Source of the DNA: a virus | Lineage: Duplodnaviria; Heunggongvirae; Uroviricota; Caudoviricetes | Strand: one strand, 5' to 3' | Virus record (IMG/VR): IMGVR_UViG_2648501235_000001 | Span: 1 to 33,554 of that record | DNA length: 33,554 nucleotides | Shown here: positions 8,484-17,745 of the stretch, piece after piece | Layout of the letters: each line of letters opens with the position of its first letter | Position numbering within the stretch: position 1 is the stretch's first letter | Made by a program: the position numbers and the translations under genes | The notes under the pieces: generated by a model | What the model saw: the letters and a program-made list of their open reading frames with translations, nothing else | Told to the model about the DNA's origin: nothing | The model's database searches: none

Positions 8484-9191
8484 TCATGAACTTTTCAGCC
8501 ATTCCCTGGCCTCGATGTCATCTAGGTGGCGAGATTGCTTCAGAATACCAGCTACATACTCCACCTTTGCTACTTGATGATAAGGCAACGTTATTGGCCT
8601 GTGGTCTTGGTTGATGCTTGTAAATTGGTATTCTCCGTCTCTGTCATAGCCAAGAACCTTGATCATGTTGTGCCCTTCAATGGTTCTGACAAACACCTCA
8701 TCACCTGGGAATACTTTGGTGTTAGGCTCAATGAGTACATATTCTCCTGATTTTATTCTGGGCCACATGCTGTCTCCTTTTACACGAAGACCAAAGGCAT
8801 CTGGATCATCGCTATAAATCTTGAGCCACCCATCGCGCTCTTCGGTCATCTCGATGGCACCATCAACACCAAGAATTGCCTCACCAACCACGCGCACTAA
8901 CCCTTTTTTTAATTTGCCAACAATTGAAAAAGTATCTTCATCATTCGCTCCATTTAACGAAGTGCCGTGCTGAAGCCAAACAACATCAACGTTTAGAAAT
9001 TTCGCAAGCGCATTCATTTTTTCCTGGCGTGGTAAAGACTCAGCATTAAACCATTTGCTAACGCCTTTGGACGAAAGAGAAAGGGCACGGGCTATGGCCA
9101 TTCCCCTACCATGTTCATCAAGACCAGCTTCTTTACAGGCTTGCGCTAGCCGCTGGGCGAATTCTTTGCGCACTTTTTCATTCTGAACCAT
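8484..9191 (-). CDS. cI: CI-type prophage repressor (HTH N-domain + LexA/S24-like autocleavage C-domain)
   Basis: 235 aa, ATG at 9191 with no SD, consistent with a leaderless pRM transcript as in lambda. C-domain has GDSMWP (Ser) and a downstream Lys (MIKVL) typical of S24 peptidases. Not lambda, 434 or P22 c2 by sequence. Confidence 0.85.
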   Translation of the reverse strand: MVQNEKVRKEFAQRLAQACKEAGLDEHGRGMAIARALSLSSKGVSKWFNAESLPRQEKMNALAKFLNVDVVWLQHGTSLNGANDEDTFSIVGKLKKGLVRVVGEAILGVDGAIEMTEERDGWLKIYSDDPDAFGLRVKGDSMWPRIKSGEYVLIEPNTKVFPGDEVFVRTIEGHNMIKVLGYDRDGEYQFTSINQDHRPITLPYHQVAKVEYVAGILKQSRHLDDIEAREWLKSS

Positions 9192-14864: not shown

Positions 14865-15049
14865 ACGCCACAATTCAAACGATACCAGAGCTTCTTATCC
14901 AGACACGAGGTAATCAGACCGAAGTGGCAAGGATGCTTTCCTGCGCAAGAGGAACAGTGCTCAAGTACAACCGAGACAGCAAAGGTGAGCGTCACGTAAT
15001 AGTTAACGGCGTCCTGATGGTAACGCCAGGCAAAAAGGGAAGACGATGA
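14861..15049 (+). CDS. ninH: NinH
   Basis: ...TIPELLIQTRGNQTEVARMLSCARGTVLKYNRDSKGERHVIVNGVLMV parallels lambda NinH (...GNQTEVARRLKCSRGTVRKY...). Confidence 0.75.
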   Translation: MNATIQTIPELLIQTRGNQTEVARMLSCARGTVLKYNRDSKGERHVIVNGVLMVTPGKKGRR

Positions 15050-15669
15050 GACTCGAAAGCGTAGCTAAATTTCATTCGCCAAAAAGCCCGATGATGAGCG
15101 ACTCACCACGGGCCACGGCTTCTGACTCTCTTTCCGGTACTGATGTGATGGCTGCTATGGGGATGGCGCAATCACAAGCCGGATTCGGAATGGCTGCATT
15201 CTACGGTAAGCACGAACTCAGCCAGAACGACAAACAAAAGGCTATCAACTATCTGATGCAATTTGCACACAAGGTATCGGGGAAATACCGTGGCGTGGCA
15301 AAGCTTGAAGGAAATACTAAGGCAAAGGTACTGCAAGTGCTCGCAACATTCGCTTATGCGGATTATTGCCGTAGTGCCGCTACGCCGGGCGCAAGATGCA
15401 GAGATTGCCACGGTACAGGCCGTGCGGTTGATATAGCCAAAACAGAGCAGTGGGGGATAGTTGCTGAGAAAGAGTGCGGAAGATGTAAAGGCGTCGGTTA
15501 TTCAAGAATGCCAGCAAGCGCCGCATATCGCGCTGTGACGATGCTAATCCCAAACCTTACCCAACCCACCTGGTCACGCACTGTTAAGCCGCTGTATGAC
15601 GCTCTGGTTGTGCAATGCCACAAGGAAGAGTCAATCGCAGACAACATTTTGAATGCGATCACACGTTAG
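15046..15669 (+). CDS. Q: Late-gene antiterminator Q, lambda type
   Basis: 207 aa MRLESVAKFHSPKSPMMSDSPRATASDSLSG...CRDCHGTGRAVD...CGRCKGVGYSRMP..., near-identical to lambda Q as recalled. Confidence 0.9.
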   Translation: MRLESVAKFHSPKSPMMSDSPRATASDSLSGTDVMAAMGMAQSQAGFGMAAFYGKHELSQNDKQKAINYLMQFAHKVSGKYRGVAKLEGNTKAKVLQVLATFAYADYCRSAATPGARCRDCHGTGRAVDIAKTEQWGIVAEKECGRCKGVGYSRMPASAAYRAVTMLIPNLTQPTWSRTVKPLYDALVVQCHKEESIADNILNAITR

Positions 15670-15711
15670 CGCCATGATTGCCACGGATGGCAACATATTA
15701 ACGGCATAATA

Positions 15712-15765
15712 TTGACTTTTTGAATAACTTTGGGGAAACTTGACACCAATAATGGGCGTTTTTTA
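15712..15765 (+). promoter_or_regulatory. Late promoter pR' with qut site
   Basis: TTGACTTTTTGAATAACTTTGGGGAAACTTGACACCAATAATGGG parallels lambda pR' TTGACTTATTGAATAAAATTGGGTAAATTTGACTCAACGATGGG; similarity to lambda ends shortly after the initial transcribed region. Confidence 0.6.
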
Positions 15766-15947
15766 CATGTCATTGATGAGTCTCAATAACCTGCCGCCGA
15801 GTAGTTTTTATGCTCTGAATTGTATTTGTGTAGTAAACATGCTGACTGCAATGTAATAGAGTTTTTTAGCCTGTAACCTCTTGACGGCATTGAATTGCTT
15901 TTGTTATGAGTTGTAAGCCAATGTTATCATCTTGTATTGGGGTGGTT

Positions 15948-16664
15948 ATGAAGGATGGTGCGCTGCTCAGGAGTTCTTCACTTTTTATTGCCTACATGGG
16001 ATGCCTTGGATGGGGGAGTGCTTATTTCTATGGATGGGGTACTTCTTTTTACTACGGCTTCCCATGGTGGATTGTAGGTGCAGGTGTTGATGATGTTGCC
16101 AGAAGTTTATTTTTTGCAGTTATCGTCATTGCTATATTTCTTATCGGTTGGGGTATTGGTGTTGTATTCTTTTTCGCAGTGAAAAGAAAACATTCTATGC
16201 AAGAGCTAAATGTATTTCGCCTTTATTTTGCTGTGGAATTATTGTTTATGCCGGCAATTATTGAGTTTTCTATATTGAGACAGAAGATTCAGGTACCTCT
16301 TTTGCTACTGTCAGCAGCGATTGCGCTGGCGGTTACAATTTCGATAAGATCTTATGGGCGATTTTTATCGGTATCATGCTTCTATGATAAGCCATTTATA
16401 AAAAAACATTTTTTTGAGATTGTGATGATTGCTTTTGTGGCATATTTCTGGCTTTTTTCATTTCTGACAGGATATTACAAACCGCAGTTTAAGAAAGAAT
16501 ATGAAATGATTAATTATAATGATGGTTGGTATTATGTTCTTGCTCGTTATGATAATTGTCTGGTTTTGTCTACTTCTTTCAATGCAGGTAGTAAAAGGTT
16601 TGTCATTTATCAATCAGCACAAGATAAGAATCTTCAGGTTGATATTGTAAGGACCAGAATTTAA
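15948..16664 (+). CDS. Uncharacterised multi-pass (about 5 TM) inner-membrane protein; AT-rich cargo gene between pR' and the lysis cassette
   Basis: Open frame 15906-16664. Start is ambiguous: ATGs at 15906, 15921 and 15948, only the last with a weak G-rich SD. Hydrophobic segments LFFAVIVIAIFLIGWGIGVVFFFAV, LYFAVELLFMPAIIEFSIL, VPLLLLSAAIALAVTISI, FFEIVMIAFVAYFWLFSFL. About 27% GC in a sampled stretch. Confidence 0.55.
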   Translation: MKDGALLRSSSLFIAYMGCLGWGSAYFYGWGTSFYYGFPWWIVGAGVDDVARSLFFAVIVIAIFLIGWGIGVVFFFAVKRKHSMQELNVFRLYFAVELLFMPAIIEFSILRQKIQVPLLLLSAAIALAVTISIRSYGRFLSVSCFYDKPFIKKHFFEIVMIAFVAYFWLFSFLTGYYKPQFKKEYEMINYNDGWYYVLARYDNCLVLSTSFNAGSKRFVIYQSAQDKNLQVDIVRTRI

Positions 16665-16797
16665 TTGGCTGCATAAATAATATTTTAAGTTGCAAGTTGG
16701 CTATTCGTAGGAATAGAACCTTAGGCATGCTGAATGCGTTTTCTGAACATTGTTTTATAAACTGTGTCTGCTTGCTGTTGTGATCCTGCTTTTAGTG

Positions 16798-16908
16798 ATG
16801 GTGATGATGGATTTCACCAGCAGGATAATGTTGGTACTGACTGATGGCGCTCTGGTCTGCGGCATTGTGGTATTGCTGTGGCCGATGATGAAAGAACAGA
16901 ATGAATAA
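16798..16908 (+). CDS. Possible small hydrophobic peptide (36 aa; alternative ATG at 16828 with AGGA SD gives 26 aa)
   Basis: MVMMDFTSRIMLVLTDGALVCGIVVLLWPMMKEQNE: one TM-like segment with a charged C-terminus. Below ORF-track cutoff; no homology evidence. Confidence 0.2.
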   Translation: MVMMDFTSRIMLVLTDGALVCGIVVLLWPMMKEQNE

Positions 16909-17094
16909 TCCTTGACTTTTTTGTTTACTGTTTATTAAAAAATCAACCGCATGGTGAATCCTCCTTGGAGGGGCTAAATGATCGAGTTTTAAGGGCACGT
17001 AGCGAGTTCTGTTTGATCATTGCAGAACTTAGCGGGAGGCGCCATGCGTACATCACTAATGTTATTTCCTTCTATCATTTTCCTTGTGAGTTCT

Positions 17095-17121
17095 GGCTGC
17101 GCATGGCGCGGCCTTTTTTTT
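17095..17121 (+). terminator. Strong intrinsic terminator (plus strand) within the Q-S spacer
   Basis: 8-bp stem GGCTGCGC/GCGCGGCC (one G-U pair) with 3-nt loop (17095-17113) followed by TTTTTTTT (17114-17121). Confidence 0.6.
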
Positions 17122-17466
17122 ATGACCTGCCACTGGCAGATGGTCATCCTGTGATTTGATTCCGGTTCCGGCTTTTTAACTCTGTTCCTGTACACGGGAG
17201 AAATTCTATGTCGATTAATCGTTATGATATTGGTTACAAGAAGTACCACGTATTGTGTTGAGATAGAAAGCCTGGTGCCAGAGGTAAATGCAGCAGCATA
17301 ATAAAAAAGAGCCAGCGCAGAAGAGAACGGGTAAAAGAGTCTGCGCTGGCGTGGGGATATTCCCCGTGGAGAAATGATATGTAACACACATCGGGAACCT
17401 TTCTATATAAACATTATCATTATTGTCAATCATAACAGTCAGGTATTATGACGTTTATGCATCAGG

Positions 17467-17497
17467 GCCATCAGGAATTAACTGGTGGCTTTTTATT
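17467..17497 (+). terminator. Candidate intrinsic terminator 35 nt upstream of the holin start
   Basis: Stem GCCATCAG/CTGGTGGC (17467-17474/17482-17489, one G-U) with 7-nt loop, followed by TTTTTATT. Confidence 0.4.
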
Positions 17498-17529
17498 GTT
17501 GTCAGCTTCCGGATAACGGGAGACGGGGT

Positions 17530-17745
17530 ATGTACCAGATGGAAAAAATCACAACAGGTGTGTCATACACCACGTCAGCGGTGGGGACGGGATACTGGCT
17601 ACTGCAGTTGCTGGACAAAGTCTCCCCATCCCAGTGGGTGGCAATAGGCGTATTGGGTAGCCTGGTGTTTGGCTTGCTGACGTATCTGACAAACCTTTAT
17701 TTCAAGATTAAAGAAGATAAGCGTAAGGCTGCGAGAGGTGAATAA
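17530..17745 (+). CDS. S: Class II holin (pinholin), phage 21 S type, with dual-start motif
   Basis: [71 protein letters not shown] parallels phage 21 S as recalled; ATGs at 17530 and 17539; GGAG SD. The six-frame ORF start at 17485 is GTG. Confidence 0.85.

Follow-up and report, generated by a model that had tools for sequence, protein, structure and literature searches.

A lambda-type late region without a detectable promoter-proximal terminator, in which the first terminator after pR' is that of the PasD small RNA

In textbook accounts of lambdoid late control, a terminator lies directly after the late promoter pR'. What stops RNA polymerase, and which genes it can reach, when this terminator (tR') seems to be missing is the question raised by the lambdoid prophage analysed here (record IMGVR_UViG_2648501235_000001, positions 1-33,554), the whole 33,554-nt stretch of which is referred to as the window. 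Between the gene for the antiterminator Q and the holin gene, the first of the lysis genes, the window carries a gene for a five-transmembrane (5-TM) protein, which is treated below as cargo. The first-pass annotation had seen no recognisable tR' close to pR' and had proposed that the 5-TM gene is expressed from pR' in lysogens. In the reading that we consider the probable one, the interval holds a cargo cassette with its own promoter and terminator, exposed to pR' by a weak tR', and the barrier before the lysis genes is found at two distal terminators, T1 and T2.

The upstream part of the region is of the lambda type. Besides a Q of the lambda family, the window possesses a late promoter, a Q-binding element, a pause element and the GGG that goes with it, with variant bases in the spacer and in the -10 hexamer. 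The late promoters of lambda, HK446, mEp234 and the P22-like phage Emek can be aligned collinearly with 15712-15756, and the records of HK446 and mEp234 label the homologous stretch 'promoter, similar to lambda PR''. The -35 hexamer (TTGACT, 15712-15717) and the -10 hexamer (GAAACT, 15735-15740) are separated by a 17-nt spacer, a close variant of the lambda Q-binding element. Every comparator pR' has TAAATT as its -10, from which the window differs at two positions (consensus score 8/12), while a consensus-like -35, A-11 and T-7 are kept. According to a simple consensus score calculated over all window sites, pR' ranks in the top 1.2%. Further downstream, AATAAT-GGG (15748-15756) stands in the alignment in the same register as AACGAT-GGG of lambda (+1 to +9), and it is by homology that the start site and the pause positions are predicted. 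The motif GGGCGTTTTTTAC occupies 15754-15766, and beyond about 15756 the sequence is no longer homologous to other lambda-Q phages. The same arrangement is present in the isolated phage 2B8, the viability of which lends indirect support to constitutive activity of the promoter and to Q-dependent passage through the terminators downstream.

Terminators were searched for on the plus strand by three methods, namely a d'Aubenton-Carafa-type score d (ViennaRNA hairpin energy per nt plus a weighted U-tail score, d > 0 being positive), an independent consensus scanner, and folding of individual sites with shuffle controls (energy and z). From 15735 to 17094, no plus-strand site with d > 0 was found, whereas the score was positive for the late regions of all five comparators (+15.3 for lambda tR', +32.2 for 434 tR', +20.7 for HK446, +13.1 for mEp234 and +21.1 for Emek), each of which has its terminator at most 200 nt from pR'. 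An intrinsic tR' at about 50-260 nt from the start, as in the lambda-type Q/pR'/qut module, is thus missing. The consensus scanner returned the same two plus-strand terminators, T1 and T2, and nothing upstream of them, and the folding of the individual sites is in line with this. The first-pass annotation is confirmed on the lack of a recognisable tR' and on the positions of the first strong terminator and of the second one. Both are compact GC-rich hairpins with an immediate U-run, a description that does not fit 15791-15809, and the site homologous to T2 is annotated as a terminator in the record of phage 434. T1 lies about 1.35 kb from pR'.

Concerning the leader itself, the terminator prediction that the first-pass annotation had proposed as a check gave no efficient terminator at 15770-15947. 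The T-run that had been noted within about 200 nt of pR' without a convincing hairpin is confirmed as such: for the T6 run at 15759-15764, the preceding hairpins reach only -0.1 to -3.2 kcal/mol. The top-scoring terminator-like site of the leader, a long imperfect hairpin found in both of the Q contexts described below, is sub-threshold. An alternative hairpin drawn from the unique segment 15757-15790 was rejected, since the stem of the best candidate (15755-15798, -6.4 kcal/mol) ends 6 nt before the U-run (d = -94). As a whole, the 203-nt leader is no more structured than its shuffles (z -0.70), and no Rfam match was obtained for 15741-15947 at a permissive threshold. A short pR'-tR' RNA of the 6S or StxS kind is not predicted, as neither the score nor folding found a terminator that would bound it. 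As for Rho, a loading site in the leader is unsupported: the composition is 14.5% C and 22.5% G, with a C/G ratio of 0.5-0.8, and never as high as 0.85, across all 78-nt windows, and the excess of G over C throughout is the opposite of a rut (Rho utilisation) site. A missing terminator is, by itself, what would be expected from random sequence; it is the deviation from the family norm that stands out, together with a degenerate homologue of a terminator at the very site.

Base by base, this homologue can be matched to the terminator that is annotated in phage 434 (CCCGCUGCCGAGUGGG + U8). Its stem has only 4 bp (-1.2 kcal/mol vs. -8.5 for 434; d of -33 vs. +32), and when 15780-15815 is folded (-3.5 kcal/mol, z -0.29) the U-run falls within the loop, as compared with -12.5 kcal/mol (z -4.1) for the intact tR' of 434 and -26.9 kcal/mol (z -5.4) for that of lambda. 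An intact hairpin, CCCGCTGCCGAGTGGG followed by T7-8, precedes the cargo in phage 434, in prophage Sp3 of Escherichia coli O157:H7 Sakai and in an O145 strain, and in prophage PP2 of E. coli E2348/69 the stem is one pair shorter and followed by T9. At the aligned position, the window reads CCTGCCGCCGAGTAG + T5, with three substitutions in the stem region and a shortened U-run. To judge from these alignments, a real tR' has left the T5 run at 15805-15809 as its remnant.

Over the 75 nt from 15786 to 15861, about 20 positions differ between the two forms, including a 4-base difference in U-run length, vs. less than 1% over the next 1.3 kb, which argues that the two alleles are old and did not arise by a recent mutation. 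Sequences that combine the two also exist in nature, their crossovers falling at 15810-15850. All lambda-Q-linked sequences that were examined have the weak hairpin, and in phage 434, Sakai Sp3, the O145 strain and PP2 the cargo follows a Q82-type antiterminator; a Q82-type locus of Escherichia albertii has an intermediate hairpin (d about +4). Among 5426 complete E. coli genomes, the lambda-Q (weak-hairpin) allele is carried by 572, of which 542 at an identity of at least 99%, its carriers including O157:H7, O26:H11, O111 and E2348/69. The Q82/tR' allele is found in 620 genomes, and some strains have both. With 572 of the 728 genomes that give a lambda-like pR' match, the weak-hairpin allele is the commonest lambda-Q-type late region in complete E. 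coli genomes. Besides being widespread in E. coli, the cargo is carried by phages 434 and 2B8.

The Q82-type loci also keep an N-terminal fragment of a lambda-type Q (434 locus 103-192; PP2 locus 9041-9112) ahead of lpxR-ylcG-Q82, which suggests that a block of lpxR, Q82, pR' and tR' replaced most of the lambda-type Q and its promoter there. The right-hand junction of this replacement block is located at the terminator hairpin. Prophage Sp4 of Sakai was considered as a carrier of the lambda-Q allele and rejected, because it has another antiterminator; the Sakai data from differential RNA-seq (dRNA-seq) and Term-seq therefore cover only the Q82/tR' allele in Sp3.

Expression was examined in prophage PP4 of strain E2348/69 of enteropathogenic E. 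coli (EPEC), which is 99.7% identical to window 15650-17560. Values are DESeq2 BaseMean counts from uninduced cultures, under activating or non-activating conditions (Pearl Mizrahi et al. 2021, PMC8550237). In activating conditions, they amount to 6.0 for Q, 147 for the 5-TM gene, 5.4 for the holin gene and 3.9 for the lysozyme gene; the corresponding non-activating values are 1.35, 90.3, 1.2 and 0.6, with almost all other PP4 genes below 10 in that table. The step up from Q to the 5-TM gene is thus 25-fold and 67-fold, respectively, and background is reached again at the holin gene, which places an active promoter between Q and the 5-TM gene and indicates that the lysis genes are not reached. 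In a near-identical lysogen, the 5-TM cargo is expressed and the lysis genes are silent. The first-pass proposal accordingly stands in one of its two parts, that of transcription of the 5-TM gene in uninduced cells; pR' is only a candidate for the driver, a better promoter match lying directly upstream of the ATG.

This match, a candidate promoter with an extended -10, is the sole plus-strand 9/12 match in the leader and belongs to the top 0.02% of the window sites. Its predicted start (about 15937) is 11 nt before the ATG at 15948, with a Shine-Dalgarno sequence, GGGGTGG, at 15939-15945. It is 100% identical behind both Q types, and E. albertii and Escherichia sp. MOD1-EC7003 share its two hexamers and the TG without any change and have one to three substitutions in the spacer. 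The PGAP (Prokaryotic Genome Annotation Pipeline) and 434 records start the 5-TM gene at the ATG at 15921; in MOD1-EC7003, this codon is not in frame and leads to a TAA, which makes 15948 the likely start.

In MOD1-EC7003 (NZ_PTRE01000031.1), the 5-TM gene is intact (94% amino acid identity) and neither Q nor pR' is present. The 70 nt upstream and a DUF1737 fragment are kept, the neighbours are genes for an SMR transporter, a BD-FAE esterase and an aminotransferase, and no other phage genes are found nearby; the locus is a domesticated remnant. Two further observations concern the leader. In the phage 434 record, TTGTTATGAGTTGT (window 15901-15914) is annotated as a CII-type site (ttgy-N6-ttgy), which overlaps the -35 of the candidate cargo promoter; its spacing to the -10 appears to differ from that in lambda pRE. 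A 29-codon open reading frame (ORF) at 15767-15856, MSLMSLNNLPPSSFYALNCICVVNMLTAM, has no recognisable Shine-Dalgarno sequence and is probably not translated.

The 5-TM protein corresponds to WP_001302581.1, E2348C_1012, ECs_0816 and phrog_1521 (function unknown), and is named 'STM1630 family' by PGAP. It gave no match in Pfam, PADLOC or NCBIfam, and in a tblastn search against 50,697 phage records only 434 and 2B8 were recovered. The GC content of the gene is 36.3%, vs. 51% for Q and for the window, which is typical of a moron. The second cargo gene, for a DUF3927 peptide, is annotated in the 434, 2B8 and PGAP records. As in morons, then, the composition differs from that of the surroundings, the cassette has its own terminator (T1), and it is expressed from a repressed prophage, as seen in the PP4 RNA-seq data (the strain has a second near-identical copy).

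T1 is the terminator of PasD. PasD1 is an Hfq-dependent small RNA (sRNA) mapped in EPEC E2348/69 (Pearl Mizrahi et al., PMC8550237), and the reverse complement of its Northern probe corresponds to window 17080-17103, while its published 3' end is the end of the T1 U-run. In a 2026 preprint, PasD is placed beside the Q and LpxR genes and presented as structurally related to STnc100 but diverged from it, and the literature counts it as a relative of that family and not among its members. In agreement with this, the Rfam STnc100 model (RF02076) matches 16919-17124 over its full length (37.7 bits, E 5.9e-6), although under the gathering score of 47. With a BaseMean of 8652 in uninduced EPEC, PasD1 exceeds the cargo mRNA (147) about 60-fold, so that it must have its own promoter.

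Table 1. Positions in the window, strand and supporting evidence for the features of the late region
Feature	Position	Strand	Basis
Lambda-type antiterminator gene Q	15046-15669	+	Pfam PF03589 Antiterm, E 3e-56; 202/207 identical to lambda Q (98%)
Late promoter pR' with Q-binding element in spacer	15712-15740	+	-35 TTGACT, 17-nt spacer, -10 GAAACT; collinear alignment
Predicted start (about 15747/15748) and sigma-dependent pause region	15747-15766	+	-10-like AATAAT 15748-15753, GGG, CG + T6 15759-15764
Degenerate homologue of 82/434-type tR'	15788-15813	+	CUGCCGCCGAGUAG 15791-15804 + U5 15805-15809
Long imperfect hairpin followed by T6 (T7 in most relatives)	15813-15867	+	Hairpin 15813-15861, 49 nt, dG -7.3 kcal/mol, d = -24.2
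Candidate cargo promoter, extended -10	15901-15930	+	TTGTTA, 18 nt, TG-n-TATCAT; consensus match
Cargo gene 1, 238-aa membrane protein (5-TM gene)	15948-16664	+	ORF; about 5 hydrophobic segments, 65-aa C-terminal domain
Cargo gene 2, 52-aa DUF3927/TciB-like small membrane protein	16750-16908	+	Pfam PF13064, E 3e-14; phrog_1470
PasD1-type sRNA (EcOnc13; structurally STnc100-like)	16949-17121	+	PasD1 NC_011601 1060260-1060432, mapped via flanking-gene offset
T1, first intrinsic terminator downstream of pR'	17095-17121	+	8-bp GC stem, U8; hairpin 17095-17113 + T8, d = +52.1; -16.1 kcal/mol, z -2.9
Esr41-like sRNA candidate, between T1 and T2, outside the pR' unit	17301-17442	-	Rfam Esr41, 32.3 bits, E 0.0016, under gathering score 102
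T2, second intrinsic terminator, 33 nt before the holin start codon	17467-17497	+	17467-17489 + T5, d = +19.9; -16.2 kcal/mol, z -4.2
Class II holin (S21-type), first lysis gene	17530-17745	+	Pfam PF04971, E 1e-32; PGAP coordinates

According to the reading of a cassette exposed to pR', the interval from Q to the holin gene S would be a lysogen-expressed unit coding for the 5-TM protein, the DUF3927 peptide and the PasD sRNA, and closed by T1. It would have been joined to a lambda-type Q/pR' module, with the promoter-proximal terminator left as a crippled remnant. A polymerase that leaves pR' without Q would meet neither an intrinsic terminator nor an obvious Rho site over about 1.35 kb, and could therefore enter the cargo and stop at T1. 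The cargo would not depend on pR': its own promoter at 15901-15930 would be the main source of the moderate expression in lysogens, and read-through from pR' an additional contribution. In a lysogen, the cargo promoter, and probably pR' too, would transcribe the 5-TM and DUF3927 genes, PasD being made from its own promoter; plus-strand transcription would end at T1, with T2 as a back-up. These two terminators would thereby take the place of tR', the holin, endolysin and late genes staying Q-dependent. Upon induction, Q would load at the pR' pause, and the modified polymerase would run past both terminators and on into S, R, Rz and the late genes. From transcription at pR' in the lysogen onward, these steps are modelled on lambda.

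Several observations weigh against this account. The -10 of pR', GAAACT, has lost the T at -12 and is weaker than the TAAATT of lambda, so that the promoter may be weak. The cargo promoter is a consensus match, in a region where six promoter-like sites were counted vs. 7.7 expected from shuffles. The U-runs of the leader (T6, T5 and T6) could bring about hairpin-independent pausing or release, which falls outside the scoring of the scan. Finally, the copy behind the intact tR' in PP2 has a BaseMean of 226 vs. 147 for the tR'-less copy in PP4; as the two 5-TM genes differ at one nt, these counts cannot be assigned to a copy, and they neither support nor exclude read-through. For the same reason, a comparison of tR'-less and tR'-bearing copies by the published per-gene counts fails; the main text of PMC8550237 is silent on the treatment of multi-mapping reads.

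The weight of the two promoters can be seen differently. Were the cargo a pure moron, served only by its own promoter, pR' transcripts would never reach it, be it that this pR' variant is nearly inactive without Q, that the polymerase is released at the hairpin-less U-runs, or that Rho, H-NS and RNases remove the untranslated AT-rich leader. AT-rich DNA of the kind that makes up the cassette is indeed silenced by H-NS and Rho. The conservation of the cargo promoter, the occurrence of the cargo alone in MOD1-EC7003, the GAAACT hexamer and the fact that the counts are no higher than for the tR'-bearing copy all agree with this, but no terminator is detectable by two methods, the leader, being G-rich relative to C, is poor for Rho loading, and pR', with its consensus-like elements, must work for 2B8 to be viable; we find it somewhat doubtful. 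It appears unlikely that, conversely, transcription of the 5-TM gene in lysogens depends mainly or wholly on pR', the loss of tR' having turned a wasted short late transcript into a cargo mRNA. For such a role, one can cite the lack of any terminator or rut-like sequence between pR' and the 5-TM gene, the expression step between Q and that gene in uninduced cells, and the constitutive activity of lambda pR' in lysogens, which is established and restated in PMC7547250. Yet a better promoter match is found 18 nt before the ATG and remains conserved in the absence of pR', the -10 is weaker than in all other lambda-type pR' examined, the cargo mRNA is moderate, far below PasD, and the copy behind the intact tR' of PP2 has equal or higher counts, subject to the one-nt mapping caveat.

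A different solution would be that tR' has a functional substitute in the T6 run at +12 to +17, acting as a hairpin-independent site of early release that is suppressed by Q loading. Its register is identical to that of the +16/+17 pause of lambda, the RNA:DNA hybrid would end there in six rU:dA pairs, and the -10-like AATAAT is nearer to consensus than the AACGAT of lambda. The run has no hairpin, however, the idea derives from its position, and no precedent was found in the literature searched, all of which makes it very improbable.

Besides the features of the pR' unit, the stretch between PasD and the holin gene carries a candidate Esr41-like sRNA on the minus strand, with a promoter-like site (17442 to 17413) and a strong terminator, GCCAGCGCAGA...TCTGCGCTGGC + U6. 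An overlapping minus-strand feature, E2348C_1013, has a BaseMean of 2064 and a log2 fold change of -2.9 in the delta-hfq mutant, i.e. a 7.5-fold drop. PasA and PasC were considered as the RNA encoded on the minus strand at 17301-17390 and rejected: their probes are absent from the window even when three mismatches are allowed, and the RNA is thus a different relative, which appears to be unnamed so far. Two annotated ORFs lie in the same place. A 132-aa 'hypothetical protein' of PGAP (16989-17387, minus strand) overlaps both PasD and the minus-strand sRNA, and a 63-aa 'putative membrane protein' of the 434 record (16965-17159, plus strand) overlaps PasD and contains its terminator; neither is probably a gene. 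In 434, 2B8 and PP2, PasD is followed by a SASA/nanS-p sialate esterase gene, which is missing in the window; homology breaks at about 17232, and PasD is consequently within 410 nt of the holin gene.

The probable barrier before the lysis genes, in the commonest lambda-Q-type late region of complete E. coli genomes, is the terminator of a regulatory sRNA located 1.35 kb downstream. If read-through does occur, a phage late promoter has a share in lysogenic conversion in pathogens, and perhaps in their PasD levels, and mutations in T1 or sRNA-processing events would affect prophage stability as well as host regulation. If it does not, the two alleles offer a natural pair for measuring tR' in vivo, the same cargo lying behind an intact or a crippled tR', sometimes in one strain. 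More tentatively, and as something possible rather than probable, the loss of tR' may have turned a constitutive late promoter into a lysogenic-conversion promoter: a 1.37-kb mRNA would code for two membrane proteins, its 3' end would feed the Hfq-dependent PasD pool, and the barrier overcome by Q would have moved to the sRNA terminator, one promoter thus serving lysogeny without Q and lysis with Q. The finding refines the established model and does not overturn it; mechanistically it is unsurprising, but it is widespread in pathogens and can be tested with existing data.

All of the components are known, i.e. the lambda Q/pR' module, the cargo of 434, PasD and the S21-type lysis cassette. In literature searches, no description was found of a tR'-less lambda-type late region, or of a barrier placed at the sRNA terminator, and this is apparently an undescribed, common variant of a known architecture. 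Compared with the late module of lambda (Q, pR', qut, tR' and 6S RNA), it has a Q 98% identical, the same -35 hexamer, a close variant of the spacer, the pause element and GGG in register, and lysis genes downstream. The differences reside in the -10 (GAAACT vs. TAAATT) and in tR', which in lambda is a hairpin of -26.9 kcal/mol followed by U6 at +194, whereas the window has none for 1.35 kb. Since the promoter-proximal tR' is lacking, 'variant of the lambda late module' is the best name for the region.

As for 434, Sakai Sp3 (ECs_0815-0818) and PP2, they have the identical WP_001302581.1, DUF3927, PasD and T1, the same T2, holin and endolysin type, and a leader homologous to that of the window from 15786 on. 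Unlike the window, they carry a Q82-type antiterminator and promoter, after lpxR and the N-terminal fragment of a lambda Q, and, where the window has the remnant, an intact tR' (CCCGCUGCCGAGUGGG + U7-8); 434 and PP2 moreover keep the nanS-p esterase gene, deleted in the window. PasD1 and PasD2 (EcOnc13) are the counterpart of window 16949-17121, which matches the published PasD1 by coordinates and probe, its score staying below the STnc100 threshold.

The closest functional parallels are of two kinds. The short pR'-tR' RNAs, such as StxS, of Shiga toxin (Stx) phages, 21, 82, phi80 and P22 (PMC7547250) also come from a late promoter that is constitutive in lysogens and have their fate set by the first terminator; in those phages, however, it lies 50-260 nt downstream and a stable short RNA results, while the transcript of the window would be a 1.37-kb mRNA ending in PasD. 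Lambdoid morons (bor and lom of lambda, and those of HK97) are, like the cassette, AT-rich inserts between phage genes, with their own promoter-like element and a strong terminator, and are expressed from the repressed prophage, but the cargo of the window is placed inside the leader of the late operon, upstream of its first terminator, and is exposed to pR'. The locus thus works like a moron embedded in a late leader.

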